Positions 945 through 61,328 of a stretch of 64,000 nucleotides of DNA are shown in pieces. Position 1 is the stretch's first letter; each line of letters begins with the position of its first letter. The position numbers and the translations under genes were made by a program. Location of the stretch: the NCBI GenBank assembly GCA_020631855.1, contig JACKGU010000001.1:167601-231600 (forward strand). Reading direction: 5' to 3'. Source of the DNA: Candidatus Nomurabacteria bacterium (GTDB lineage: Bacteria; Patescibacteriota; WWE3; UBA101185; UBA10185). Below the pieces are notes generated by a model that was given only the letters and a program-made list of their open reading frames with translations, was not told the DNA's origin and did not search any database.

Positions 945-1618
945 TAGGTTCTAAAATCAAACATGTTGTTCTAGATGCCGATGGCACGTTGTTTAAAACT
1001 GAAAACCCTTACTTATATGTAGCCCAGGCCTTGAACGTATACGAAGATGTCTTGGTTTTAATAAATAAATATCTCAGTAAAGATATCTCTTATGAAGAAC
1101 TGATAGAAAAAGAGACGTCTTTATTTTCTCGTACTTATAAAAAAATGACCGGCCGCCATCCCCATACAGGTGACTTGGAGAAGTACCTTCCTGTTCCCAA
1201 GCTGTTTGACGACGTTAAAGAGACCATAGAAGAGCTTCATCGGAGGCAAGTTCATGTTTATGTTATTAGTTCTGGGTTCTATTATTTAGTAGAGGATTTG
1301 GTTGCGTTGGGTATAAAACTAAGAGATATTCATGCAAATAAATTTTTGTATAACACGCACGGGGAGTTTGAAATGATAAAAATTGATGTTTCCGGAGAGA
1401 AAATTGATATCATGAAAAGTATATTTGGCAATTCTCTGGGTGATGTTGCTTATGTCGGTGATAATGCTTTTGATGAAAAGCTTTGCGAGTTTGTGCTATT
1501 ATCGGAAGGCACTGTTTTTTTTAAAACAACCGGTGAAAATTTATTTAAAATGAAGCACTCTTTTGCAAATAAAAATTTTCATAAAACTAAGACTTTGTCA
1601 GATATCTTATCTTTTTGA
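932..1618 (+). CDS. HAD-superfamily hydrolase.
   Basis: It has the N-terminal DxDGT motif (VVLDADGTLF) and a C-terminal GDxxxD-like motif (VGDNAFDEKL). These give the HAD motif I/IV architecture. Confidence 0.65.
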   Translation: MAKLIGSKIKHVVLDADGTLFKTENPYLYVAQALNVYEDVLVLINKYLSKDISYEELIEKETSLFSRTYKKMTGRHPHTGDLEKYLPVPKLFDDVKETIEELHRRQVHVYVISSGFYYLVEDLVALGIKLRDIHANKFLYNTHGEFEMIKIDVSGEKIDIMKSIFGNSLGDVAYVGDNAFDEKLCEFVLLSEGTVFFKTTGENLFKMKHSFANKNFHKTKTLSDILSF

Positions 1619-1622
1619 TTTA

Positions 1623-1745
1623 TTTATAATTTCGTTACTCAAACCTACTTACGCGAGCTAGTAGATATAGTTTACCCAACATCTTGAGCTCTGCAAGGCA
1701 AAGAAATTACAGTAAAACACCTGCTTCAGCTGGTGGTGGTTAATA
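1623..1745 (+). repeat. Conserved ~123-nt intergenic element, copy 1. Candidate structured sRNA or repeat family.
   Basis: It begins TTATAATTTCGTTACT, contains CTACTT..AGCTAGTAG and a CTYTGC-loop-GCAAAG hairpin, and ends CCACCTGC..GCTGGTGGTGGTTAAT. It aligns along its full length with copies at 5727, 8429 and 30918. Confidence 0.6.
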
Positions 1746-1782
1746 TCTGCACTGATCCGAAAATATATTGAAGTGTAAATTT

Positions 1783-2163
1783 TTAGTTAATTTTGAATTT
1801 TTCCATTTGTCTTAGTATTCCTCTGCCGTGCTGACTATTAAAAACGGCTGTCATATCTGTATTACATTCGAATATGTCTCCTCCACTGTGTAAGTCTTTA
1901 AAGTTTGTCACGTCGTATTTTTGTGAATTTATGGTTATTATGCAGGTTTCCAGATTTGAGAGGGTTTCTGGTTTTTGGCCGGTATCAAGAGTTTTGGTAA
2001 GGTTGTTGTCAATAGTAGTTTTTGTATTTTCTACTTCGGCTAAGTTTTGTAATTTTTCTTTATTTTGCGCTGTGTCCGGTTGATAGTAAGTATATATGGC
2101 CCCGGTGAGTAAAATTGTAATAATTACTACATTAGCTATTAAAATCTTATTTATGAGTTTCAT
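1783..2163 (-). CDS. Cytochrome b5-like haem-binding domain protein with an N-terminal signal anchor.
   Basis: YDVTNFKDLHSGGD...FNSQHGRG matches the cytochrome b5 pattern YDVTxFxxxHPGG...H, which supplies two His ligands. The N-terminus (IANVVIITILLTGAIY) is hydrophobic. Its ATG overlaps the stop codon of the upstream gene by 4 nt. Confidence 0.6.
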   Translation of the reverse strand: MKLINKILIANVVIITILLTGAIYTYYQPDTAQNKEKLQNLAEVENTKTTIDNNLTKTLDTGQKPETLSNLETCIITINSQKYDVTNFKDLHSGGDIFECNTDMTAVFNSQHGRGILRQMEKFKIN

Positions 2164-3488
2164 TTTAATGCAAAATCCTCAAAAACTATGTTTTTTCTTG
2201 GAACTCCTAATTCTATAAACTGTTTGGCTAGCGATGCCATCATTTCTGTTGGCCCACAGAGCATCACCAGCGTATTCCTTACGTCCTTGCGGGCATCTTG
2301 CATGAAAACTCCCATTTCCGGTGCTAGAGTTTTTGCGGCTTGAATTTTACCTTTAATGCTAGAATACCAAAAAATAATTTCAATATTGCTCGTTTCTTTC
2401 GTTGTCGCTATAAGTTCGTTTTTATATACAGCATCGGTCTCGTTATTGGTGCAGTAAAACAAATGCATTTTGGTAGCGGGATCTGTCATATTAGATCCCA
2501 GTATGCTTAAAAAGGGCGTTATGCCTATTCCACCGGCTATAGCTATTATCCGTGGGGTTGTATTTATTTTGGAGCTAAAATCCCCGTAGGGACCATACAG
2601 GTACAGTTTTGCGCCTTTTTGTATTTTGCTGAGCTGTTCGGTATAGTCGCCTAAAATCTTAATTGCCAGTCTAATTTTCTTTGAGTTTGTTGGAGACGAG
2701 ATAGAGAAGGGGTGCTCCTCAGGTCCGATTTTAAAATCAGCTGTTCTCATGAATACGTATTGCCCTGCCTCAAAAATCATAGGTCGATTCTCGTTTTTAG
2801 GATTTAGTATAAGCTCAAAAATTGAACCTTTTTTAATAATTTCATCGACTACATAGTTGTACTTCGAGGTGAAGTTCTTGTAAATTATCAGTTTATACAT
2901 ATAGGCACTTATGCCTACTGCTACAACGCTCAGCATCCAAATTTTAAGAGGCTCGTTTCGTGAAACATCGCTTGTTATTGTTCCAATGTGTAGGCCTACA
3001 AAAACGAGCACCACCCCCATAAATTGATGGCTTATTTTCCACAAATGGTAGGGTATTTTGTTATATAAAGTTAGTGCCAGAAGAGCAATAAGTAGGTAAA
3101 AAGCGACAACCCCAAAGTTGTTCTCTAGGGTTTTACCCACAAAAAAATACTGAAGCGGAGAGGTGTCGCCGCCCCATGCATTCAAAACAAGAAGAGTAGG
3201 GTGATACAAGACCAAAATGAAAGCTGTGATGCCGATCACATGATGCACTCTATAGATTCTGTCCAAGCTGCCAAAAAGTTTTTCCAGGAACCTAGCTCTG
3301 GTACTTAAGACGTATGCCCATGACAGCAAGGTCGCAGCAATAAGAGAGAAGTATTGCGATAGCGCCAGAAAAGGCTTGTCGGCAATAGCTAAGATTGAGT
3401 TCTTGGACATTAAGAATAGTGCGGTTGTTAAGAAACATGAGACTAGAACTACGTATGGTCCCAGATTTTTTAATCCTTTAAATAACAT
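2160..3488 (-). CDS. Ferric-reductase-domain (NOX/FRE-like) membrane flavocytochrome.
   Basis: Six transmembrane helices carry two bis-His pairs at i,i+13 spacing (HVIGITAFILVLYH and HQFMGVVLVFVGLH). It has the FAD motif HPFSISS and the NAD(P)H motifs GGIGITPF and CGP. Confidence 0.75.
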   Translation of the reverse strand: MLFKGLKNLGPYVVLVSCFLTTALFLMSKNSILAIADKPFLALSQYFSLIAATLLSWAYVLSTRARFLEKLFGSLDRIYRVHHVIGITAFILVLYHPTLLVLNAWGGDTSPLQYFFVGKTLENNFGVVAFYLLIALLALTLYNKIPYHLWKISHQFMGVVLVFVGLHIGTITSDVSRNEPLKIWMLSVVAVGISAYMYKLIIYKNFTSKYNYVVDEIIKKGSIFELILNPKNENRPMIFEAGQYVFMRTADFKIGPEEHPFSISSPTNSKKIRLAIKILGDYTEQLSKIQKGAKLYLYGPYGDFSSKINTTPRIIAIAGGIGITPFLSILGSNMTDPATKMHLFYCTNNETDAVYKNELIATTKETSNIEIIFWYSSIKGKIQAAKTLAPEMGVFMQDARKDVRNTLVMLCGPTEMMASLAKQFIELGVPRKNIVFEDFALK

Positions 3489-3517: not shown

Positions 3518-4390
3518 TTATGCCGATACCTGCTTTGTATGTAAATTTGGATAAGCAGCTGCTACAACAATTACCGTGCCGCCTATAAGTGTAGAAATAG
3601 AAAATACTTCATAGAAAAACAGCCACCCAAAAATAACTCCGAATAGAATCTCAGCCAGGCCTATCAGACTTCCTATGCTACCCTCTAAATATTTAAAACC
3701 TTCAATAGCCGCAAAATTAGCTATGAGCATGCTTATTGCATAAAATAGCTGCGCAGCCCAAACCGATGTGTTGGTAAAAGAAGGTATCGAGTCGTGATTA
3801 AGCAGCGCGAGGGGGGTATTTATTAGTATTTGGAGTGCAAAATAGCCAAGCATTATTTGAAATTCCGAATAATTTCCTGAAAGTTTTTTAGTAAGAACCA
3901 CAGTTGCTGCTCCGAGCGCGCCTGCTATACATGTTAGGCCTGCAGCCACTAATTGTCCCGGACCAAGGGAGAATTTATAAATTAAAGCCATACCTAGCAC
4001 AGATAAAGCTAGGCTGAAAAGTTTGGTTTTACTTATTTTCTCACTTAAAAACGTTTTACTAAGAACGTAACCCCCTATTACTAGAGAGGCGTAAAAAAGT
4101 AAAGTTGCCGTGCCGATTTGCAAGTGTTGAAATCCAAAGTAATATGGGGCTTGATTTATACCCCCGGCGAGCGCAATGACAATAAACCAAGGTAAGTCTT
4201 CTCTTCTAATTCTTTTTAGAAATCGTAATTTGTAATTGAGTACTAGAACAACTACTAATAAAAATAATCCTCTAGTCCAGGCTTGTGAGAAAGAGCCGAA
4301 AGAAGCCCCCATTAAGCGCGACCACACTCCGTATGAAGCATAAAATAGCGCAGATATTAAGATGTAGATAGTTCCTTTTGTGGTTGACAT
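3518..4390 (-). CDS. DMT/EamA-family transporter.
   Basis: It has about ten transmembrane helices and two EamA-like halves. I chose the internal start MSTTKGTIYIL; the longer ORF N-terminus is non-hydrophobic junk. Confidence 0.6.
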   Translation of the reverse strand: MSTTKGTIYILISALFYASYGVWSRLMGASFGSFSQAWTRGLFLLVVVLVLNYKLRFLKRIRREDLPWFIVIALAGGINQAPYYFGFQHLQIGTATLLFYASLVIGGYVLSKTFLSEKISKTKLFSLALSVLGMALIYKFSLGPGQLVAAGLTCIAGALGAATVVLTKKLSGNYSEFQIMLGYFALQILINTPLALLNHDSIPSFTNTSVWAAQLFYAISMLIANFAAIEGFKYLEGSIGSLIGLAEILFGVIFGWLFFYEVFSISTLIGGTVIVVAAAYPNLHTKQVSA

Positions 4391-4430
4391 GTATTGGATT
4401 ATAGTGAGCAAATTGTGTATCATCAAACTG

Positions 4431-5246
4431 ATGTCCGATAAAACAGACAGATTTATATCTTTATTGTTACCTCTGGGTCTTAGCAGAGATGAAGCAGCTT
4501 TATACCTGTTTTTGAGAGAAAACTCTAGTTGTACCGCCTTACAGTTAAGCAAGAAACTTGCTATCCCCCGAACACGGGTGTACCGAATATTGGACAATTT
4601 ACTAAAACTGGGAATGGTAAAAATCCTTCTCGGCGCTCGGGGCCAAAAATATGAGGCTTCCGGTAAGGAACAGATTGACGCTCTTATTGCACAAAGAGAG
4701 CACGAAACAAATTCTCTAAAAAGAAGTGTGGAGATTATAGAGGATCATTTGTCTTTATTGCCAAATTCTGTGGGTACACAGTCAAAGGTGTTGTATTATC
4801 GAGGCTTAGAGGGATTAAAGCAAATAACTTGGAATTCTTTAAAAGCCAAAGACGGCCTTCTTACTTTAGAAGTTACAGATATGAATGCTTTTTTTGATAA
4901 AGCTTACGCCGAGGATATGCGCCTTAGATTTATTGAGAAGAAGATAAAAATAAGAACCCTGACAAATGCGCGAAAAATTCTTTCTTGGACAAATGTAGCT
5001 AGCGAAATGGTTGAAAAATATTGGGAAATTCGACACATTCCGGAAAAACAACTGCGCATAAATTTCGAAATCCTCATTTATAATGATGTATATACCCTTT
5101 ATCGCTACCAGGATTCGGAGATATTTTGTGTGGAAATTTACAATAAAGAGTTGGCTGAGATGCAAAAGCAGCTATTTGAGTTTATGTGGAAAAACGCAAG
5201 AAAGTTCAAAGTTTTAAACAGTAGTGGGGAGGCTTTTTTGTTGTAA
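4431..5246 (+). CDS. TrmB-family HTH transcriptional regulator.
   Basis: The N-terminus LGLSRDEAALYLFLRENSSCTALQLSKKLAIPRTRVYRILDNLLKLGMV is a TrmB-type winged helix. The gene is divergent from the EamA transporter. The start was chosen at MSDKTDRF. Confidence 0.6.
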   Translation: MSDKTDRFISLLLPLGLSRDEAALYLFLRENSSCTALQLSKKLAIPRTRVYRILDNLLKLGMVKILLGARGQKYEASGKEQIDALIAQREHETNSLKRSVEIIEDHLSLLPNSVGTQSKVLYYRGLEGLKQITWNSLKAKDGLLTLEVTDMNAFFDKAYAEDMRLRFIEKKIKIRTLTNARKILSWTNVASEMVEKYWEIRHIPEKQLRINFEILIYNDVYTLYRYQDSEIFCVEIYNKELAEMQKQLFEFMWKNARKFKVLNSSGEAFLL

Positions 5247-5446
5247 AGAGGCGCGGCAGGGACTAGTTAATTATGTTGCGGATTACTTTATGCACGAAGT
5301 AGGGACGTCTGCATAATTTTATACTTGGGGCGATGTATATTGATACTGATCGACAGAGATCATTAAGAGTGGAAGGCCTGCTGCTGCCTACCGAAAACCC
5401 GACGATATATTCCTTGATCCAGCGTATCGTTCTTCTTGGCAGGGGC

Positions 5447-5520
5447 GGAAGGAATCGAACCCTCACAAACGGTTTTGGAGACCGTTGTACTACCATTATA
5501 CGACGCCCCTACATTTTTAC
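5447..5520 (-). tRNA. tRNA-Trp (anticodon CCA).
   Basis: The reverse complement AGGGGCGTCGTATAATGGTAGTACAACGGTCTCCAAAACCGTTTGTGAGGGTTCGATTCCTTCCGCCCCTGCCA folds as a cloverleaf. The anticodon loop is CTCCAAA. Confidence 0.9.
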
Positions 5521-5595
5521 CCGCCTTATTAGCTCAAACTACTAACTGAACCAAAATGTGTTAAAAACTCAAAGTATCGAGTCTTTTTTTTAAGA

Positions 5596-5672
5596 TGGAG
5601 CCCGCTGGCAGAGTCGAACTGCCGACCTCATCCTTACCATGGATGCGCTCTAACCAACTGAGCTAAGCGGGC
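5596..5672 (-). tRNA. tRNA-Thr (anticodon GGT).
   Basis: The reverse complement is GCCCGCTTAGCTCAGTTGGTTAGAGCGCATCCATGGTAAGGATG...TTCGACTCTGCCAGCGGGCTCCA. The anticodon loop ATGGTAA sits in a CATCC/GGATG stem. Confidence 0.9.
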
Positions 5673-5726
5673 GCTGTCAACTACTATACAATCTAATCCC
5701 ATATTTTTCCACTTTTTGTTTGTAGT

Positions 5727-5850
5727 TTTATAATCTCGTTACTTTAATCTGCTTGTGCTATCTAGTAGATGCGGTTTACTTAGGATGCTCGGCTTTGCAG
5801 CGCAAAGAAATTACAGTAAGCCGCCTGCGTAAGCTGATGGCGGTTGATTA
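5727..5850 (+). repeat. Conserved ~123-nt intergenic element, copy 2.
   Basis: TTATAATCTCGTTACT...GGCTTTGCAGCGCAAAGAAATTACAGTAAGCCGCCTGCGTAAGCTGATGGCGGTTGATT. Its terminal hairpin uses CCGCC/GGCGG where the other copies have CCACC/GGTGG, which is a compensatory change. Confidence 0.6.
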
Positions 5851-5928
5851 GGCGGCCTCTTTACACCTTTTAGCCATAACTGAAGTTCTTGACCCAATCT
5901 AATAGTATTTGCTGCAGTCTTTGGTCGT

Positions 5929-7056
5929 TTGATTATTTCTCACGGTTTGCTAAAATGCGGACACCGCAAGACTAGTAAAATGTTAATAACAGGGTTTTTA
6001 ACACAGAAACATATAACAAAGCTAAAAAAACTTATTTTTAGCGAGGAGGAGAAATTTTTAGTAAATAAAATTGCTCATTTTTCAATCCGACTAGGGCAAA
6101 CCTCAATAATCACTGCAGTTATAAAATCTCTTGAGGTTGGAATGACCTTTTTACTATATGTATTTTTAAACAAAGTGCGTTTATTGGGACTCTCTGCTCT
6201 GTACCCTCTATTTTTTTTATATGTGGCAGTCTCTGTGCTCGCATTTTTTTTGAGAACCGTTGTTTTTGGCTACTATTCTAACGCTTATAGTCGCTTGATA
6301 GGTGCAGTTTTGGACAACTTGATCTCGTTTTTACTGGATGACTACAGAGTTTCTTTAGCCACCGTGTCGGCAAATTTTCCAAGCCCTAAAGATATTGCTA
6401 ATAAAATCTCTGACGCCAGTAAAAGTTTGCTTTATATTGTATCGGTGCTATCTTCGATTATCGGCTTGGTGTTAGGGTTGCTAGTCCTTCTTGTCGCCTA
6501 TTTGTTTGTTGGGGAGCCTTTTTTGATAAATGTTGTTCTTATGTCTTTGTTATTTCTTGGGGCCTTCGCAATTTACGTTAGATTCGGATCTTTATACTAT
6601 CCATCGCAGAAAGCCTTCATGTCTTTAGTGGATAAATTCGACATTGATTTTAGCGGTACTCGGCCTTTGTTAATTCGTACAAACCTGAATTTATACCCTA
6701 AAGAGCTTAATAAGGCCCTTGAAGATACGGTGCGTGTCACTACCAAAATTAATTTAATTTCCAATGCTACCGCCTATATAGGTCCGATGTTGTTGGTTTT
6801 ATCCTTTTTTATACCCGCTCTTTCGCAGGATCTCAGCCATTATATAATTGTTGCCCTGTTCGTTGTTTCTAACACATTTGGGCATTCTGGCATTGTGAGT
6901 CACTACTATGCGGTAAATTTGTCCCGTGAACGTTTGGTAGAGTTTGATGCCATGTTAGACACAGTTCTTGAGACAGGGGCCGAATTAACCCCCCTCAGAT
7001 ACGACGATATATCAAACCATTATTTCAAAGATAATCCCTTTAAATCTCGTATCTAA
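5929..7056 (+). CDS. ABC-exporter-type transmembrane domain protein (six helices with long cytoplasmic loops).
   Basis: Three helix pairs are separated by 60–70-aa loops, the type-I exporter topology. It lies immediately upstream of an ABC-like ATPase gene. The start is uncertain and could be at M18. Confidence 0.5.
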   Translation: MIISHGLLKCGHRKTSKMLITGFLTQKHITKLKKLIFSEEEKFLVNKIAHFSIRLGQTSIITAVIKSLEVGMTFLLYVFLNKVRLLGLSALYPLFFLYVAVSVLAFFLRTVVFGYYSNAYSRLIGAVLDNLISFLLDDYRVSLATVSANFPSPKDIANKISDASKSLLYIVSVLSSIIGLVLGLLVLLVAYLFVGEPFLINVVLMSLLFLGAFAIYVRFGSLYYPSQKAFMSLVDKFDIDFSGTRPLLIRTNLNLYPKELNKALEDTVRVTTKINLISNATAYIGPMLLVLSFFIPALSQDLSHYIIVALFVVSNTFGHSGIVSHYYAVNLSRERLVEFDAMLDTVLETGAELTPLRYDDISNHYFKDNPFKSRI

Positions 7057-7126
7057 AGAGTGTATCGATGAAAGCCAAGGTCTTGAGATAAAGTCTTTAG
7101 TTTATATTTCAGGCCGTGGCGATTCT

Positions 7127-8023
7127 ATGAAAAATGTTTATCTAGACCATCTATTTCTTGAGAAAAATAAAGTTCATTTTTTAATAGGTGATTCCGGAAT
7201 AGGAAAATCTATATTTGGCAGGCTTATTACACTCAGGTACGAAGCTTTTAAGTGTGATTTTTTGGGTATGGGGGATTGTGATTTTAGAACATTTGAAAAT
7301 TTGGACGACGGATTAAAGGAGCTTCACTTTAGTAGTATAAGAAACATTGATACTAGCTATAGAAACGCGATTGGGGCCTATTTGGCATCAGATTTTGAGT
7401 GTAGGTTCTTTTTAACGCAGCTTGTGGAAACATTAAAAAGTAAGGCCGAGGTGGCAGGCTTTTTTGATTCCAGTGTGGATTACTATGGATCTAAGACAGC
7501 CGAGATATTAAAAGTGATGGAAGGCTATGATTTTAAATTTTGTAAAGAGGATTTTCTTGGGCTATCTAAGCAAGAACTTCGTGAATTAAGAGAGTGTTTT
7601 AGATCCCGAATAGAGTGGTTCCCCTCATCTAAAATATTTGCACTTTCGGCAATTTTTGAATATATGACTTTTACACATCTAAGATCTTTTATACCTGAAG
7701 CTTCGCTGTATTTTATGGATGCGGTACTATCCGAGCCTCCTGTTTCTCAGGGGCAGAGGCGCAGGATTCTTTTGGCTCTTGATGTATTGCTTGGAGGAGC
7801 CGTGATGGTTATTGATGAGCCATTTAGCAATATTGATCTTGGGGCGTCAAAAAGCATTTTATACAAGTTAAAAAACTATAATCAGGTTAATAATTCAGTG
7901 CTGTTAGTTTTGGACCAAAAAATACATCCCGAATTACTAGAGGTGTGTCGAAGCGAAGGTAATTTAGGTAAAGTTTTAGGCTTTTCTGATGAAGGTAAGG
8001 GTCTTAAGATAGTCGAGTTGTGA
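7127..8023 (+). CDS. Degenerate ABC-type ATPase (nucleotide-binding domain) with an ~80-aa insertion.
   Basis: Walker A is GDSGIGKS at aa 21–28. The signature-like motif VSQGQRRRILLA is at aa 206–217. Walker B is VMVIDEP at aa 226–232 and the D-loop is SNIDL. The Walker A to signature distance is about 180 aa, against about 100 in canonical domains. Confidence 0.5.
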   Translation: MKNVYLDHLFLEKNKVHFLIGDSGIGKSIFGRLITLRYEAFKCDFLGMGDCDFRTFENLDDGLKELHFSSIRNIDTSYRNAIGAYLASDFECRFFLTQLVETLKSKAEVAGFFDSSVDYYGSKTAEILKVMEGYDFKFCKEDFLGLSKQELRELRECFRSRIEWFPSSKIFALSAIFEYMTFTHLRSFIPEASLYFMDAVLSEPPVSQGQRRRILLALDVLLGGAVMVIDEPFSNIDLGASKSILYKLKNYNQVNNSVLLVLDQKIHPELLEVCRSEGNLGKVLGFSDEGKGLKIVEL

Positions 8024-8124
8024 GGTGCGTAAGGATTGTGGCCGGCCAAGCCCGGGCAAGGTTTGTGTGGGCTTGTGTATAGGTCGTATTCTCTAGCGTT
8101 GTTAATCTTCGAAAAAGGTTAATT

Positions 8125-8210
8125 TGGTGCCGGGAGCAGGATTTGAACCTGCGTAGGCTTGCGCCAGCTGATTTACAGTCAGCCCCGTTTGGCCACTTCG
8201 GTATCCCGGC
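8125..8210 (-). tRNA. tRNA-Tyr (anticodon GTA).
   Basis: The reverse complement GCCGGGATACCGAAGTGGCCAAACGGGGCTGACTGTAAATCAGC...GGTTCAAATCCTGCTCCCGGCACCA has a long variable arm. The anticodon loop is CTGTAAA. Confidence 0.9.
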
Positions 8211-8283
8211 ACGTTAAGTCAGTAAGTCTGTGGCAGTAGCCTGCGACAGAACTATAGCACTTTTGCATGAGCAGAACTCTATC

Positions 8284-8358
8284 TGGAGCCAGCGGTGAGA
8301 GTCGAACTCACGACCTATCCCTTACAAGAGGATTGCTCTGCCACTGAGCTACGCTGGC
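8284..8358 (-). tRNA. tRNA-Thr (anticodon TGT).
   Basis: The reverse complement GCCAGCGTAGCTCAGTGGCAGAGCAATCCTCTTGTAAGGGATAGGTCGTGAGTTCGACTCTCACCGCTGGCTCCA is a perfect cloverleaf. Confidence 0.9.
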
Positions 8359-8428
8359 CTCTGTATGGTTTAAACCATAGTGCCTCTGCATTTTAACACA
8401 TGTTAGTTTTATGGGGAATTACTTGTTT

Positions 8429-8553
8429 TTTATAATTTCATTACTTGAAACTACTTGTGTAAGCTAGTAGATGTATTTTAACCAACATGTTGGGCTTTGC
8501 AACGTAAAGAAATTATAGTAAACCACTTGTGTAGGCCGGTGGTGGTTGATTTC
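8429..8553 (+). repeat. Conserved ~123-nt intergenic element, copy 3.
   Basis: TTATAATTTCATTACT...CTACTTGTGTAAGCTAGTAG...CCAACATGTTGG...GCTTTGCAACGTAAAGAAATTATAGTAAACCAC...GGTGGTGGTTGATT. Confidence 0.6.
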
Positions 8554-8590
8554 GGACTTTTTCTATTTATGTTGATTTATTGGCAGGATT

Positions 8591-8935
8591 TCATTTTGAG
8601 GGTTTATCAGTTTGCAAAGTTTGTATAACTTCTTCTGTTTCTTTTTCCATAATTTTAAGAAGTTTTTCTTGGCGAGCTTCTATAATCTCAATTTTCTTTT
8701 CCCAGTCGCTTTGGGCGGCATGCAGTAAAGACATCATCAAAAAGGTTAGAATGGTTGTGGCCGTATTTATGAGAAGGTGCCAAATAGCATTAAATCCTAT
8801 AATGAGCCCAGAGGGAAGCCAGATGACAACCATTAAAAGCGAAATCCCGAACCAATACGGACTGCCTACGATTTTTGATACTCTTGTTGATAGCCCTTCA
8901 AATGCTTTACGTGTTTTACTTTGTGTTTTTGGCAT
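8591..8935 (-). CDS. Small two-helix membrane protein resembling the low-affinity iron permease (Fet4-like, PF04120-type) family.
   Basis: GSPYWFGISLLMVVIWLPSGLIIGFNAIWHLLINTATTILTFLMMSLL matches the family pattern (G.P..F......W......F...W.L.INT.TTI.TF). The opposite-strand ORF 8580–8942 is low-complexity and was rejected. Confidence 0.5.
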   Translation of the reverse strand: MPKTQSKTRKAFEGLSTRVSKIVGSPYWFGISLLMVVIWLPSGLIIGFNAIWHLLINTATTILTFLMMSLLHAAQSDWEKKIEIIEARQEKLLKIMEKETEEVIQTLQTDKPSK

Positions 8936-13493: not shown

Positions 13494-14822
13494 TTACTCT
13501 ATTGTTGGATAGATCGGAAACCTTGATGCAAAATCTGCAACTTCTTTCTTAATCTCTTTTAAGTAGGTATCTGTTTTCAATTTTTTCAAAAACACGGCTC
13601 TCTTTTCTTTATTTTCCCCTTTTGAATTATTGCTGAAGTTGGTATCCATGGATCTAACGGTATAGTTAAGTGTTTTGTCTATTATTGTAGCCACATATTC
13701 CATTTGCTCCTCTTTCATGCCCCTGGATGTTAGCGCCGGTGAGCCTAGCCTTATTCCGGAAGGGTAGAATGGGGTCTTTGTATCAAAAGGAATTATATTG
13801 CGGTTTACGATTACGCCTGCATACTCTAAGGCCCAAGCTGCGGCCCACCCATCTATATTCTTTGCAGATACATCTAGCAATAATAGATGGGTATCGGTTC
13901 CGCCGGAAATTATCGTGTATCCTTTTTTTATAAACACATTGCAGAGTGCTTTAGAGTTCAGGACTACCTGATTAATGTATTCGGTGAATTGAGGGCTTTG
14001 GGCTTCGCCCAAAGCCACAGCAATACCCGCAATGTTGTTTAGATGTGGGCCCCCTTGGGTGCCGGGGATAATTGCCTTATCAATTTTACTTGCTAGCTCA
14101 GGGTCTTTGTTAGTACCGGCGTCAGTAGTTAAAATTAAGGCACCTCGGGGGCCCCTTAATGTTTTATGTGTCGTGGTGGTTATTATGTCGGCGAAAGGAG
14201 TTGGGGAAGGGTGTGTTTTTGCAACTACAAGGCCTGCAATATGTGAGATGTCCGCCATATGATACGCCCCGACCTCTTTTGCTATTTCTCCTATTAATTT
14301 AAAATCTATTGTTCTAGAATATGCGCTGCCTCCGGATATAATAAGTTTGGGCTTATGTTGGTGCGCCATCTCTCTCATCACTTTGTAGTCAATAAAACCT
14401 TCAGGACTCACCCCATACTGAATTGAGTTAAAAAACTTTCCTGATAGTGTTACCTTGGGGTGGCCGTGAGTTAAGTGCCCTCCTGACGACAAGCTCATGC
14501 CCATTATCGTATCTCCAACATCTAAAAGTGCAAATAATACTGCAAGGTTCGCAGGGGAGCCGGAATTTGCTTGGACATTGGCAAAGGGTGTATCAAATAA
14601 AATTTTCGCTCTCTGTATAGCCAGTTTTTCTATTTGATCGGCATACTTATTCCCTTGGTAATATCTTTTTTCGGGGTATCCTTCGGCATATTTATTGGTA
14701 AAAACTGATCCCAAAGCCCTAAGTACGTTTTTTGATACGTAATTTTCGCTTGGAATGAGCTGAAGTTCTGCTCGTTGTCTACGAGTTTCCATTTTTATAA
14801 TCCGATTTACATTTTTATCCAT
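13494..14822 (-). CDS. glyA: Serine hydroxymethyltransferase.
   Basis: It has the PLP-lysine region TTTTHKTLRGPRG and SHMT signature similarity throughout. Confidence 0.9.
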   Translation of the reverse strand: MDKNVNRIIKMETRRQRAELQLIPSENYVSKNVLRALGSVFTNKYAEGYPEKRYYQGNKYADQIEKLAIQRAKILFDTPFANVQANSGSPANLAVLFALLDVGDTIMGMSLSSGGHLTHGHPKVTLSGKFFNSIQYGVSPEGFIDYKVMREMAHQHKPKLIISGGSAYSRTIDFKLIGEIAKEVGAYHMADISHIAGLVVAKTHPSPTPFADIITTTTHKTLRGPRGALILTTDAGTNKDPELASKIDKAIIPGTQGGPHLNNIAGIAVALGEAQSPQFTEYINQVVLNSKALCNVFIKKGYTIISGGTDTHLLLLDVSAKNIDGWAAAWALEYAGVIVNRNIIPFDTKTPFYPSGIRLGSPALTSRGMKEEQMEYVATIIDKTLNYTVRSMDTNFSNNSKGENKEKRAVFLKKLKTDTYLKEIKKEVADFASRFPIYPTIE

Positions 14823-29534: not shown

Positions 29535-30917
29535 ATGGATATTGTTCATAGATCGCGTCGGTTGGCAGCAGGCAGGGCAGGGAAGGAGTCTTTCTCCGGA
29601 CCTGTTGTGTATTGGATGAGTAGAGACCAGCGGGTGGGGGGCAACTGGGCCCTGTTATTTGCTCAGAAAATAGCCCTGGAAGCTCGCAAGCCTTTATTGG
29701 TGGTGTTTTGTCTTGTAGACTCGCATTTGACTTCTCAGCGAGGCGATAGGAACTATTCTTATATGCTTGGCGGACTGTCGCTGGTTCGAGAAGATCTTGC
29801 AGACCTAAATATACCCTTTATTATCCTAAATGGAGAGCCTCCCCAGAAATTACTGCAGTTTGTCGAGAAGTTCAGCGTTTCTGCTTTAATAAGCGATTTT
29901 TCCCCTATCAGAGAAGGGAGGGAGTGGCGAAATGGTGTAGCAAAGAAGATTAATTGCTCTTTTTACGAAGTTGACACACATAACATTGTTCCCGCATGGG
30001 TGACGTCGGACAAACAGGAATACTCAGCAAGAACCATAAGAAGCAAGCTTGTCAAAAAGCTGCCAGACTATCTTGTACCATTTAAGGTTGTACAAAGGCA
30101 GAATAGGGAAGTTACCGAAGACTTCCTAACTTTGATACCGAATGAGATTGGTTTTACAAATAAAATATTAAGTGTGAAATCTTACGAAGGTTTAAGTGCA
30201 GTTTCTCCCGAGAGGTTATTACAGGAATTTATAGACTTGAAATTAGACTCATACTCTAGGTCTAGAAACAACCCTTTAGTAGATGGTACCTCTAATCTGT
30301 CAGCCGCACTTCATTTCGGCCATATCTCATCTCAAGGTGTAATTCTAAAGATTATAGAGGAGTTTGGAAAAACGAACAAATATGATGTTCAAAAGTATCT
30401 TGAAAACCCCAAGGGTAACTTTTTCGATGAAATTATAGTGAGAAAGGAGCTGGCGGATAATTTTTGCTTATATAATAAAAACTATGACAATTATCTCGGC
30501 TTTCCCAATTGGGCGCAAAAATCTCTGAACGCGCACCGTGGCGATAAACGAGATACAGTTTATACTATAAGGCAGCTGGAGCAGGCTGAAACACACGATG
30601 ATCTTTGGAATGCGGCTCAGGTTCAGATGGTTTCGACAGGAAAAATGCATGGATATTTGAGAATGTATTGGGCAAAAAAAATTCTCGAGTGGAGCTCGTC
30701 TCCGGAAGAGGCTATTATTTCGTCTATCTATTTAAACGATAAATATGAGCTAGATGGAAGAGATCCAAATGGTTATGCCGGCATTGCGTGGTCGATCGGG
30801 GGACTGCATGATAGGCCTTGGTTCGACCGGCCGATTTTCGGACAAGTAAGATACATGAGTTATAGTGGAATGAAAAGAAAGTTCGATGTTGAATCCTTTG
30901 TAAAGCTTTATGTTTGA
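29535..30917 (+). CDS. phr: Deoxyribodipyrimidine photolyase (class II-like).
   Basis: VVYWMSRDQRVGGNWAL is the hallmark of class II photolyases. The C-terminal FAD-binding region is SAALHFGHIS...W..L. The start at M17 avoids overlap with the divergent upstream gene. Confidence 0.75.
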   Translation: MDIVHRSRRLAAGRAGKESFSGPVVYWMSRDQRVGGNWALLFAQKIALEARKPLLVVFCLVDSHLTSQRGDRNYSYMLGGLSLVREDLADLNIPFIILNGEPPQKLLQFVEKFSVSALISDFSPIREGREWRNGVAKKINCSFYEVDTHNIVPAWVTSDKQEYSARTIRSKLVKKLPDYLVPFKVVQRQNREVTEDFLTLIPNEIGFTNKILSVKSYEGLSAVSPERLLQEFIDLKLDSYSRSRNNPLVDGTSNLSAALHFGHISSQGVILKIIEEFGKTNKYDVQKYLENPKGNFFDEIIVRKELADNFCLYNKNYDNYLGFPNWAQKSLNAHRGDKRDTVYTIRQLEQAETHDDLWNAAQVQMVSTGKMHGYLRMYWAKKILEWSSSPEEAIISSIYLNDKYELDGRDPNGYAGIAWSIGGLHDRPWFDRPIFGQVRYMSYSGMKRKFDVESFVKLYV

Positions 30918-31043
30918 AATCAACCACCACCAGCTTATGCAGGTGGTTTGCTGTAATTTCTTTGCACTGCAAAGCACAACGTGTTGGGCAAACTACACCG
31001 ACTAGCTTACGCAAGTAGTATTAAGTAACGAAACTATAAAACT
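30918..31043 (-). repeat. Conserved ~123-nt intergenic element, copy 4, in inverted orientation.
   Basis: The reverse complement reads TTTATAGTTTCGTTACT...CTACTTGCGTAAGCTAGT...GCTTTGCAGTGCAAAGAAATTACAGCAAACCACCTGCATAAGCTGGTGGTGGTTGATTT. It abuts the photolyase stop codon. Confidence 0.6.
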
Positions 31044-31151
31044 AGGGGACGCAGTCTCTTGAGCCTTGTTGGTTTTTGTCGTTATTTTTTTTTGGTATTT
31101 AGAAGAGGGAAGTTTTGCAGAGAAAAATAAAGTGGGGGGGGCTTTGGGGAG

Positions 31152-41765: not shown

Positions 41766-42734
41766 TCAAGCTTTATCAAATTCAGTGGTCATTAATGTTG
41801 TTAACATGGATTTGATGTCCCCATCCATAATAGCTTCGAGGTTATGCCAGCTCTGCTTAATCCTATGATCTGTAACTCTGCTTTGTGGGAAATTATATGT
41901 CCTAATTTTTTCATGTCTTTCGCCTGTCCCAATAGACGACAGCCTTAGATCTGCCAGTTTTTGCACTCTTTGTTCTTGCATAGAAGTAAACAGCTTAGAT
42001 TCAAGCATTGTCATGGCTTTAGCCCTGTTCTTGCCTTGTGTGCGTTCTTCTTGACACTCTACTACCACTCCTGTTGGAACGTGAGTTAGTCTTACTGAAG
42101 TACTGACTTTGTTTACGTTTTGACCTCCCGAGCCTCCTGAACGGAAAAAGTCCATTTTCACGTCTTCCGGCTTTATATCTATGTTTACGTTTTTAAGTTC
42201 CGGGAGTACAGCAACCGTTGCAGTCGACGTATGTATTCTGCCTGCGCTTTCTGTTTTTGGAACCCTTTGCACCCTGTGAACCCCGGCCTCGTTAGCCAAA
42301 AGCCTATAAGCGCCTAAGCCCCGAATAGAAAATATAGCAGTCTTTATCCCTCCAACCTCGTTGTCTGAGTAAAATAATTCCTCAACTCGCCAGTTCATTC
42401 TCTCTGCGAATCGTATGTACATTCTGTAAAGGTCGTGTGCAAATAGGCCTGCTTCGTCCCCTCCTGTGCCCGATCTAATTTCTATTGTTGCAACATTTTG
42501 ATTAATTGTTTCTTGCGAATTCTCGCTTTCGGATTCTTCTTCTGCATACTCTCCTTTAAGCGAGCCAATAGAGTTGGAAATATCTTTTATTTGTTTGTAT
42601 AACGAGGACAGCTCTTCCTGATAAAGTTTTAACATTTGTTGATCTTTTTCTTGAGATAACAGAGGATTTATTTCTGAGGCACGTTTTTGCAACACTTCTT
42701 TTTCGTGCTCAAGGTTGTTTATTATTTCATCCAT
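41766..42734 (-). CDS. prfA: Peptide chain release factor 1.
   Basis: It has the GGQ motif ([12 protein letters not shown]) and the PKT (PxT) anticodon-mimic motif in [19 protein letters not shown], which identifies RF1. Confidence 0.8.
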
Positions 42735-57196: not shown

Positions 57197-57733
57197 ATGT
57201 CGGGGCATTCAAAATGGTCAAATATTAAAAGAAAAAAGGAAATTACCGACGCAAAGAAGAGCAAAGTTTTTTCCAAAATGAGTCGATTAATAACTGTTGC
57301 TGCAAGAGACGGGGGCGCAGACCCTGATATGAACCCTACTTTGCGATTAGCAGTAGATAGGGCCAAGCAAGCGAATATGCCGAGTGAAAATATAGATAAA
57401 GCTATTAAGAAAGGCTCAGGGGCTTTAGAAGGTGCTAAATTTGAACGAGTAGTGTATGAGGGTTACGGACCCTATGGTGTGGCTTTCATGATAACGACCT
57501 TGACCGATAATAGAAACAGAACAGTGTCGGAAATTAAAAACATTTTCAGTAAAGCTGGAGGTTCTCTTGGGACCCCGGGTAGTACATCGTATATTTTTGA
57601 TTCTTTAACCTTCGAACCCTCATTCAGAATTGCACTAGAGTCTGAAGAGCAGTTAAAAAAAATAGAAAATTTGGAAGAAGCACTTGAAGATCAAGATGAT
57701 GTGCAAGAAATTTACTCGAACTACGAATTATGA
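57197..57733 (+). CDS. yebC: YebC/PmpR-family protein (short form, 178 aa).
   Basis: MSGHSKWSNIKRKK...KMSRLITVAARDGGADPDMNPTLRLAVDRAK...DVQEIYSNYE. It is about 65 aa shorter than the canonical protein. Confidence 0.8.
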   Translation: MSGHSKWSNIKRKKEITDAKKSKVFSKMSRLITVAARDGGADPDMNPTLRLAVDRAKQANMPSENIDKAIKKGSGALEGAKFERVVYEGYGPYGVAFMITTLTDNRNRTVSEIKNIFSKAGGSLGTPGSTSYIFDSLTFEPSFRIALESEEQLKKIENLEEALEDQDDVQEIYSNYEL

Positions 57734-60308: not shown

Positions 60309-61328
60309 ATGAATAATTTCAAACATTATGTGTCGAACTATTTAGAGTACTGTGAAATAGAAAAAAATCTTTCTCAGAACACTATTAAAATGTACGACTT
60401 TTATTTAAATGATTATTTAACATGGGCCCAAGGATATTTAGGTAAGGATGAAATTCATATAGAAGACATTACATACGAAGTTGTAAAGAAATACAGGCTT
60501 TTTTTAAATAGAAGAAAAAGCACGAAATCGCATGAAGAATTCAAGAAATCGACCCAAAAGACTTTTTTGGTTGCTCTAAGGTCCTTCCTTAAGTATTTAA
60601 TAGTTGAGGAAAATTTGGCTGTTTTGTCGCCGGATCAAATAATTTTAGGTAAGCCGGAACCCTCGATTCCTAAAGTTTTGGATGAGACTCAGTTAGTGAG
60701 GTTGCTGGACGTGCAAAATCTAAGTAAGAAGTCGGGAATTAGAGACAGGGCTATACTTGAGACTCTTTTTAGCACAGGTTTGCGGGTGGGTGAGCTTGTG
60801 GCGTTGAACAGAGACGAAGTTAACACGGATTCAGGAGAATTTACGGTCATTGGTAAAGGCAAGAAGGTTCGAACAGTTTATCTAAGCGAGAATGCTAAAG
60901 TTTGGATACGTCGTTATTTAGATACGCGACGCGATGACTACGCTCCCCTTTTTTTGCGTTATTCCGGAAAAAAAATGGAACCGTCCGATATTGAAGGCGA
61001 ATCTTTAAGATTAACTGCCAGAAGTGTACAGCGTTTAGTTAAAAAATATGTTTTACGTTCGGGCTTAGCAGTTGATGCAACCCCTCATACTTTGAGGCAC
61101 ACTTTTGCCACCGGCCTATTGCAGGAAGGCGCCGACCTTAGAAGTGTTCAGGAGTTACTTGGTCATAGTAATGTTTCTACAACTCAAATCTATACCCATG
61201 TAACAAATCGCCAGCTTAAAGAAGCGCATAAAAAGTACCATAAAGATATTACAACAACTGCAGATTCTAAAAATGATTATGTTGAAAATGATCCTCGTCG
61301 AATAAAATCGGAAGAAGAGATAGAGTAA
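60309..61328 (+). CDS. Tyrosine recombinase (XerC/XerD-like integrase).
   Basis: It has an N-terminal SAM-like domain and a catalytic C-terminus: LRVGELVAL (the R), HTLRHTFATGLL (HxxR), and LLGHSNVSTTQIYTHV (H and Y). Confidence 0.85.
   Translation: MNNFKHYVSNYLEYCEIEKNLSQNTIKMYDFYLNDYLTWAQGYLGKDEIHIEDITYEVVKKYRLFLNRRKSTKSHEEFKKSTQKTFLVALRSFLKYLIVEENLAVLSPDQIILGKPEPSIPKVLDETQLVRLLDVQNLSKKSGIRDRAILETLFSTGLRVGELVALNRDEVNTDSGEFTVIGKGKKVRTVYLSENAKVWIRRYLDTRRDDYAPLFLRYSGKKMEPSDIEGESLRLTARSVQRLVKKYVLRSGLAVDATPHTLRHTFATGLLQEGADLRSVQELLGHSNVSTTQIYTHVTNRQLKEAHKKYHKDITTTADSKNDYVENDPRRIKSEEEIE

Follow-up and report, generated by a model that had tools for sequence, protein, structure and literature searches.

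Why should two adjacent open reading frames (ORFs), one encoding a membrane protein and the other an ATPase, sit by themselves between two pairs of tRNA genes and two copies of a repeat? The locus in question lies between positions 5,447 and 8,553 of a stretch of 64,000 nucleotides (nt) from a metagenome-assembled genome (MAG) of Candidatus Nomurabacteria (GCA_020631855.1, contig JACKGU010000001.1, positions 167,601 to 231,600). We call this whole stretch the window, the membrane ORF ORF A and the ATPase ORF ORF B. Our analysis shows that the locus does not hold a pair of genes at all. ORF A and ORF B are the two halves of one 681-codon gene for an ATP-binding cassette (ABC) exporter, in which a transmembrane domain (TMD) is followed by a nucleotide-binding domain (NBD). 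The gene has been frameshifted, was likely inactivated recently and occupies a conserved position. We give this reading a probability of roughly 70%.

Two halves of one gene

The first homologue search returned a protein of 494 amino acids (aa), P0001, that is 100% identical to the whole of ORF B and fuses it in a single frame with the last 170 residues of ORF A. In P0001 and in a second protein, P0005 (591 aa), both from other assemblies of the same organism, the junction reads ...NPFKSRI-S-KECIDESQGLEIKSLVYISGRGDS-MKNVY.... Aligned over 18,025 bp, the contig that encodes P0001 (ENA ERZ27248703, k141_1090326) and the window show no substitution and just two insertions or deletions (indels), both of them within the exporter gene. 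At the first, the contig has seven Ts (T7) and the window eight (T8) at 6244-6251; at the second, the contig reads TCGTATATCT and the window TCGTATCT at 7050-7051.

A three-frame translation of the window agrees with these comparisons: no stop interrupts the frame of ORF B between about 7052 and its ATG, and this open stretch overlaps the end of ORF A. When T8 is combined with the longer form of the second site (TATA), the intact protein can be reconstructed and has 681 aa. It aligns end to end with its relatives, and the alignment covers the two indel sites as well as the N-terminal motif. TMD and NBD are on one polypeptide in all full-length relatives and not in the window, whose frame is broken at 7050-7051. 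Gene callers report a membrane ORF of 358 aa and an ATPase ORF of 298 aa because a 2-bp deletion in the linker (TATA to TA) shifts the frame. An earlier note on this DNA had read the two ORFs as a split exporter pair of two genes. This is not borne out, since the homologues are single ORFs of 659-726 aa and the pair is better described as one gene split by a frameshift. We also rejected an alternative genetic code as the explanation: what differs at the junction is simply a 2-nt indel, and the TGA that ends ORF B serves as a stop in the public gene calls too.

One could argue that the split is functional. The commonest haplotype (T8+TA, see below) would then yield separate TMD and NBD polypeptides that form a working two-subunit exporter. 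The break does fall exactly in the linker between the domains, and the halves are otherwise intact. We nevertheless regard such a fission as very unlikely, for the following reasons. First, the NBD frame contains no ATG, GTG or TTG upstream of the ATG at 7127, and a product that starts at this sole in-frame start lacks strand beta1 of the NBD together with the aromatic residue of the A-loop. Second, the 22 nt before 7127 hold neither a Shine-Dalgarno (SD)-like motif nor a TATAAT-like (-10-like) box. Third, other alleles of the same population wreck the TMD as well. Fourth, the split arrangement occurs in no relative. Because beta1 and the A-loop lie upstream and start signals of its own are missing, ORF B is not an independent gene but just the part that remains readable after the frameshift.

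Alternatively, recoding could restore some full-length protein, either by +1 frameshifting of the ribosome at AUC-UAA-A in the TA allele or by transcriptional slippage on the U run in the T7 allele. Slippage on runs of A or U and frameshifting at stop codons are established mechanisms. Here they seem highly improbable: no stimulatory element is seen, the shift from AUC to UCU gives no re-pairing, and the run is just 7-8 nt long. The site is not conserved either, the relatives being in frame.

Family, fold and exporter class

What kind of exporter would the intact gene encode? Among 1.84 billion representatives searched exhaustively with HMMER, about 14 are full-length relatives; they have 659-726 aa and E values from 1e-122 to 1e-71, and the next matches, generic ABC proteins, follow at 1e-15. 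Word-index searches queried with either ORF or with the family alignment had returned almost only the same gene, and it was the exhaustive search of representatives that brought the family to the surface. All relatives come from candidate-phyla-radiation bacteria, namely WWE3, Curtissbacteria and MAGs labelled Saccharibacteria. In genomes they are single ORFs of 699-716 aa, and the exporters of the syntenic genomes are 30-44% identical to that of the window, with about 35% in the three genomes whose tRNA order is complete. A literature search found nothing on this exporter family or on frameshift polymorphism in candidate-phyla-radiation genomes. The family is a small, uncharacterised subfamily of MsbA-like exporters that is restricted to candidate-phyla-radiation bacteria.

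The AlphaFold2 model of the reconstructed protein (pLDDT 84.9, pTM 0.74) has six long helices followed by an NBD. The helices span residues 22-61, 71-121, 136-177, 180-225, 240-277 and 283-332 and are thus 38-51 residues long each. In Foldseek the best matches of the full-length model are all type IV exporters, aligned over about 700 columns with probability 1.00 (MsbA, Atm3, McjD, ABCB7, PCAT1, IrtAB, CydDC, BmrCD and TM287/288). The family profile matches MsbA with an E value of 1.7e-11. The alignment is unbroken over TM4-6, the linker, beta1 and Walker A, and it resumes at the signature and Walker B. Within it, GLEIKSLVYISGRG aligns to 'GEVDVKDVTFTY-QG' of MsbA and holds the A-loop aromatic residue. 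Foldseek and profile agree on a six-helix membrane protein of the type I exporter kind, as the earlier note had proposed, and the membrane half is accordingly modelled with the architecture of a type I (now type IV) ABC exporter. As a fallback, the earlier note had suggested a divergent peptide or bacteriocin exporter. A divergent exporter is the right class; for the substrate, the neighbours in relatives give no clue, since they are housekeeping genes. This includes the relatives on contigs L019, L021 and L022, whose neighbours differ from those in the window.

The NBD modelled alone (window 7061-8020) reaches a pLDDT of 91.0 and a pTM of 0.87. Its top 50 structural matches are transporter NBDs (OppD, HrtA, MsbA, DppF, BceA, MlaF, MacB, FtsE and others) or EttA, and SMC, Rad50 and OLD structures are absent from these 50. 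The TM-scores normalised to the targets are 0.55-0.72, hence the canonical NBD is fully present and the unmatched part is an insert. Pfam ABC_tran (PF00005) recognises ORF B with 29.1 bits (cut-off 25) and is detected in 14 of 17 members of the family. NCBIfam and PADLOC returned generic NBD motif matches only, far below threshold, and nothing for the TMD.

The unusual spacing within the ATPase is real. Walker A and signature are 185 aa apart in ORF B, and from the strand after Walker A to the signature we count 160 profile positions in the exporter family versus 71 residues in MsbA. The insert sits between the helix that follows the Q-loop (TSYRNA..AYL) and the 'FIPEA...SEPP-SQGQ' block. According to DSSP assignments of both models it consists of six to seven short helices of 4-21 residues (the longest 19-21), and its length varies among homologues. 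As modelled, it enlarges the helical subdomain of the NBD by about 90 aa and is not a coiled coil. The earlier note had likened the insertion to those of SMC- or OLD-type ATPases in defence and repair and had asked whether it might be a coiled coil or a dimerisation domain. The models show neither of these, and no Toprim domain, but a compact bundle of short helices. SMC, Rad50, OLD and AbiEii (AAA_21-type) ATPases do resemble the protein in that Walker A is far from the signature in sequence. They differ in that the insert here is compact and the protein is anchored in the membrane, with the TMD fused in relatives. Matches to PADLOC models, AAA_21 and SMC_N are sub-threshold and limited to generic motifs (AAA_21 scores 23.6 bits with a cut-off of 27).

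The catalytic motifs themselves are a mixture of conserved and altered residues. GDSGIGKS, VMVIDEP and the D-loop SNID align to their counterparts in FtsE, DppF and MsbA. The signature is VSQGQ in the window and ISQGQ in the family, so that Ser, the second Gly and Gln are kept and the first Gly is replaced by Gln. An invariant Ser (LHFSS) occupies the expected Q-loop position throughout the family, a placement that follows our own reading of the alignment. At the H-loop, nearly all members have Gln (LDQK), P0003 keeps His and a few have Glu. The degenerate H-loop described in the earlier note is therefore genuine and, like the enlarged spacing, a trait of the whole family. Since H-loop Gln and Q-loop Ser are family-wide, they are no sign of decay in the window genome.

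Like half-transporters of the MsbA/ABCB type (McjD, Atm1, PCAT1, IrtAB, CydDC), the reconstructed protein has six TMD helices, a linker and an NBD, in this order, within a single chain of about 600-700 aa. It also has Walker A, a Walker B that includes the catalytic Glu, the D-loop and, ahead of the signature, the 'FIP...' motif. It differs by a low identity (11-17%), by about 90 additional helical residues that separate the Q-loop region from the signature, by SQGQ in place of SGGQ, and by Ser at the Q-loop and Gln at the H-loop in nearly all members. In TAP1, too, the residues at the switch His and in the Q-loop are non-canonical. The degenerate nucleotide-binding sites of heterodimeric exporters such as TAP1, or site 1 of TM287/288, are similar in this respect. 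In those exporters, however, only one of two sites is degenerate, whereas the presumed homodimer here would have two.

Alleles in near-identical assemblies

The window is 100% identical to a second NCBI assembly (GCA_020631795.1, JACKGV010000006.1), a MAG labelled Candidatus Nomurabacteria or candidate division WWE3. Compared over about 58 kb, the ERZ27248703 assembly differs from the window by three single-nucleotide polymorphisms (SNPs) and two indels, and both indels are inside the exporter gene. The genome is 99.98-100% identical across many unrelated public metagenomes (NCBI, ENA, JGI and Logan; contigs L001-L018 and L029-L032), with about eight distinct SNP sites over some 58 kb in all comparisons together. 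The organism is an unusually clonal and widespread, uncultured lineage.

Three haplotypes occur at the two indel sites. T8+TA is the most frequent and is found in the MAG of the window, in a WANG18-1 scaffold (L013), in a Logan contig drawn from five samples (L030) and in four NCBI MAGs. T7+TATA is found in ERZ27248703, SRR8205411 and SRR23493590 (L001, L016 and L017), and T7+TA in SRR23493589 (L018). The intact combination, T8+TATA, was not found in any contig examined, nor were the exact intact proteins of 681 and 698 aa found among 15 billion sequences. Patterns spanning each indel site had no match in JGI metagenome contigs and so revealed no extra alleles. The window contains 19 homopolymers of at least 8 nt. 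The tract at 6244 varies between assemblies and the other 18 do not. Outside the exporter gene, the sole indel among the assemblies compared is a G8 run at 31134-31141 that is G9 in a JGI contig (3300010350, L004). It is intergenic, between copy 4 of the repeat described below and the 3' end of a 1135-aa gene with a CLIPPER domain.

Long-read assemblies typically err through indels in homopolymers and short repeats, and the frameshift could in principle be confined to the consensus of this one MAG. We consider this extremely unlikely. The identical T8+TA haplotype is present in independently assembled contigs made with other tools (L013 and L032 from WANG18-1; L030, with its five samples, and L031 from Logan), and the alternative alleles recur across samples too. 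Because they recur in contigs from different tools and samples, we take the alleles to be real.

If so, the exporter gene in the window is most likely a young pseudogene, recently inactivated and hit more than once, as judged from the assembled alleles. On this reading, which is the simplest, frameshifts would be tolerated in this gene alone because it can now be dispensed with.

The same alleles could also be seen as the states of a switch. Slippage between T7 and T8 and between TA and TATA would toggle the exporter, and the window would show the OFF state of a phase-variable contingency gene. Both indels are indeed at short repeats, and genomes that are otherwise almost the same carry one or the other allele at each site; SRR23493589 and SRR23493590, which are adjacent runs, have different alleles at the TA site. 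Moreover, three of the four possible haplotypes exist, which requires either recurrent change or recombination. Yet the ON allele, T8+TATA, is the one haplotype that is in no assembly, and its product is not in the protein collection. Tracts of T7/T8 and one or two TA units are short for contingency loci, the 18 other long homopolymers in the window are invariant, and the poly-T tract merely encodes the Phe-Phe-Leu of a membrane helix. Nor does a switch need two independent OFF lesions. On balance we think phase variation unlikely, although it is not far-fetched.

Several points weigh against an inactivated exporter gene as we propose it. The pseudogene status is deduced from assembled sequence, and alleles that are intact and at low frequency within samples would escape consensus assemblies. 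The frameshifts aside, both halves are free of stops and substitutions, hence either inactivation happened very recently or selection still acts on the halves. That a near-invariant genome shows three haplotypes at two sites implies recurrent mutation or recombination, and this fits reversible switching too. As for the exporter itself, Pfam ABC_membrane (PF00664) detects the TMD in no family member. The exporter mechanism is predicted from the modelled fold, and since the family lacks the canonical Q-loop Gln and H-loop His, the ATPase activity is a prediction too.

Proposed mechanism and implications

From fold and motifs, the intact relatives would be homodimeric exporters of type IV (MsbA/ABCB-like). 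ATP would be sandwiched at the interface of the two NBDs, with Walker A from one and the SQGQ signature from its partner. Its binding would close the NBD dimer and turn the TMDs from inward- to outward-facing, and hydrolysis with the help of the Walker B Glu would reset the cycle. The enlarged helical subdomain is predicted to adjoin the groove for the coupling helices, where it could modulate the coupling to the TMD or bind a partner. The Q-loop Ser, the H-loop Gln and the enlargement by about 90 residues suggest that hydrolysis is slow or regulated. The TA allele would yield a TMD that nothing drives and, at best, a piece of the NBD that is missing beta1 and the A-loop, and we would expect no transport.

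It is conceivable, if doubtful, that a clade-conserved exporter specific to the candidate phyla radiation is being repeatedly switched off or lost in parallel within natural populations of one near-clonal WWE3-like bacterium via indels at two short repeats. If this were true, an ultra-small episymbiont would have an envelope function that is either of the contingency type or adaptively lost. The intact form would then be an unusual homodimeric exporter, with a helical add-on of 90 residues and without the canonical Q-loop Gln and H-loop His at both ATP sites.

Some consequences are more immediate. Four NCBI MAGs list the halves as two hypothetical proteins; they should be annotated as one disrupted ABC exporter gene. 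With its bigger helical subdomain and non-canonical loops, the NBD of this subfamily is a natural variant in which the need for the switch His and the Q-loop Gln can be probed. Finally, the locus is a rare case in which several frameshift alleles of one gene can be traced across public metagenomes of a near-invariant uncultured bacterium. Loss or switching of the exporter function thereby becomes testable with read data.

The tRNA cluster and the island question

The coordinates of the locus are collected in Table 1. ARAGORN and Rfam are concordant on four tRNA genes, all on the minus strand, around 5437-8358. Together with the ORF list they confirm the layout given in the earlier note, in which tRNA-Trp/Thr and tRNA-Tyr/Thr and repeat copies 2 and 3 bracket the two ORFs. 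Between these flanks, ORF A and ORF B are the only sizeable ORFs on the plus strand. ORF A extends from 5929 to 7056; its product has 375 aa with a TTG as the start and 358 aa with the ATG at 5980. Alignment with the N-termini of full-length homologues agrees with the ATG. Promoter-like sites are no more frequent in the region than in shuffled sequence, and the one upstream of ORF A is therefore weak evidence. A terminator scan of 5200-8700 found none.

Table 1. Features at and around the exporter locus, with the four repeat copies (window positions)
Feature	Position	Strand	Remarks
Repeat copy 1	1618-1750	+	
tRNA-Trp(cca)	5437-5510	-	ARAGORN; Rfam tRNA, 63.8 bits
tRNA-Thr(ggt)	5596-5672	-	ARAGORN, Rfam; beside the gene also in L020, L024, L033/L034, L035
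Repeat copy 2 (~125 nt, structured)	5722-5854	+	Outside the gene; no copy in the equivalent spacer of relatives
Promoter-like site, TTGATT, 16 nt, TG-TAAAAT	5929-5956	+	Consensus scan; 24 nt upstream of ATG 5980
ORF A, 5' part of the gene (358 aa)	5980-7056	+	TMD with six long helices, up to the TMD-NBD linker
Poly-T tract, codons FFL	6244-6251	+	T8 in window, in frame; T7 in ERZ27248703, SRR8205411, SRR23493590 and SRR23493589, frameshift
Frameshift site	7050-7051	+	TCG-TA-TCT in window, TCG-TATA-TCT in other assemblies; 2-nt deletion parts TMD and NBD frames
3' part of the gene	7052-8023	+	Linker and complete NBD, in the frame shifted by the deletion
ORF A stop, TAA	7054-7056	+	Product of the frameshift
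NBD strand beta1 and A-loop (GLEIKSLVYISGRG)	about 7073-7114	+	Upstream of the ORF B ATG; aligned to MsbA
ORF B as annotated (298 aa)	7127-8023	+	From ATG 7127; only the downstream 298 codons of the 3' part
Walker A, GDSGIGKS	7187-7210	+	ORF B residues 21-28
Helical-subdomain expansion	7394-7681 (boundaries approximate)	+	Family-specific, modelled as all-helical; ~90 aa more than MsbA
Signature VSQGQRRR to Walker B VMVIDEP	7742-7822	+	ORF B residues 206-213 and 226-232; catalytic Glu kept
H-loop region, LVLDQKIH	7904-7927	+	ORF B residues 260-267; Gln instead of switch His
tRNA-Tyr(gta)	8125-8210	-	ARAGORN, Rfam; equivalent place in L020, L023, L033/L034, L035
tRNA-Thr(tgt)	8284-8358	-	ARAGORN, Rfam
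Repeat copy 3 (~125 nt, structured)	8424-8556	+	Outside the gene
Repeat copy 4	30913-31045	-	

Is the locus a mobile island? The earlier note had raised the prospect of an island in a tRNA hotspot, variable between genomes, that carries a two-component system of a membrane protein and an SMC- or OLD-like ABC ATPase. A check of synteny shows the opposite of variability. The order tRNA-Trp, tRNA-Thr(ggt), the gene on the plus strand, tRNA-Tyr, tRNA-Thr(tgt) is complete in three genomes (L020, L033/L034 and L035) and partial on two truncated contigs (L023 and L024). In the three genomes, fmt and def lie downstream of the exporter gene, and in L033/L034 these are joined, as in the window, by an iron-permease-like gene. 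Between the window and L035, the identity is 43% for fmt/def and about 36% for the exporter. From this we conclude that the gene has long been inherited vertically, together with its surroundings. The G+C content is 0.36-0.42 both inside the region and in its flanks, and the ORF list contains no integrase ORF.

The repeats that flank the gene have to be seen in the same light. The 125-nt repeats were considered as island borders and rejected: they are missing from the equivalent spacers of relatives that nonetheless have the gene, and the window contains two further copies away from the locus. They are, from this comparison of genomes, later additions and not borders of an island.

We give next to no credence to a two-component system on a mobile island. 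In its favor are weak matches to AAA_21, mad3 and AriA and the presence of tRNAs and direct repeats on both sides. The matches, however, are below threshold and cover the Walker A or the signature/Walker B motifs only. The NBD fold matches transporter NBDs only, no helix of the insert is longer than about 21 aa, and all relatives have the TMD fused to the NBD. Distant genomes that are without the repeats keep the gene at the same position, the G+C content equals that of the flanks and there is no integrase. The homology to exporters is full-length, the insertion falls in the helical subdomain and the gene is conserved in the core genome, which on the earlier note's own terms essentially refutes its alternative. 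There is no new defence system and no mobile island at this locus.

How, then, did the gene come to lie among tRNA genes? In E. coli the order is thrU(UGU)-tyrU(GUA)-glyT-thrT(GGU)-tufB-secE-nusG. As seen from window 5437-8358 and L001 1-578, the minus strand reads Thr(UGU)-Tyr(GUA)-[gene]-Thr(GGU)-Trp, and secE-nusG follow at a distance on that strand. Unlike in E. coli, a protein gene on the opposite strand takes the position of glyT, glyT and tuf are not in the cluster, and about 9 kb of genes separate tRNA-Trp from secE. From this likeness in gene order we infer that the flanking tRNAs are the remains of one ancient Thr-Tyr-(Gly)-Thr-(tuf)-Trp cluster. The exporter gene was probably placed into it, on the opposite strand, in an ancestor of the clade. 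One relative has a NUDIX hydrolase gene between tRNA-Trp and tRNA-Thr(ggt) (L033 1714-2316(-), L034 1714-2154(-)). Hence the cluster took insertions more than once in this clade.

Nearby in the window, at 4380-5246(+), 3518-4597(-) and 8591-8935(-), lie the genes for a TrmB-family regulator, for an EamA transporter and for a 114-aa member of the 'low-affinity iron permease' family. The iron-permease-like protein is kept beside the tRNA cluster in L033/L034 (61% identity). There is no evidence for a functional link of these three neighbours to the exporter.

The repeat and gene starts

The four copies of the ~125-nt repeat in the window are 75-83% alike. Each begins with an invariant TTTATAAT (-10-like) box. 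Two hairpins end in GUAA-type loops; a further hairpin lies in the centre, and the stem at the 3' end runs into UUGAUUU. Both partners have changed in ten pairs and 93.8% of cells are paired, which none of 500 shuffles reaches; G-U pairs favour the modelled strand. Rfam has no match for the repeat at either gathering or permissive thresholds. A covariance model found a relative with 43 bits on a Curtissbacteria contig (L019 4247-4385(-)), directly 5' of a tRNA-Leu and beside that genome's exporter homologue. We may be dealing with a small RNA in several copies or with a structured repeat of the intergenic regions of candidate-phyla-radiation bacteria.

A further observation concerns the starts of genes. 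In many genes of the window a TATAAT-like box lies 7-14 nt before the ATG, for example at 2160-3488(-), 13494-14822(-), 41766-42734(-), 57197-57733(+) and 60309-61328(+), and an SD-like motif is present in 8 of the 35 genes checked. Because TATAAT-like boxes are so near to the ATG and SD-like motifs are few, the nucleotide sequence suggests that leaderless mRNAs, or mRNAs with very short leaders, are common in this organism.

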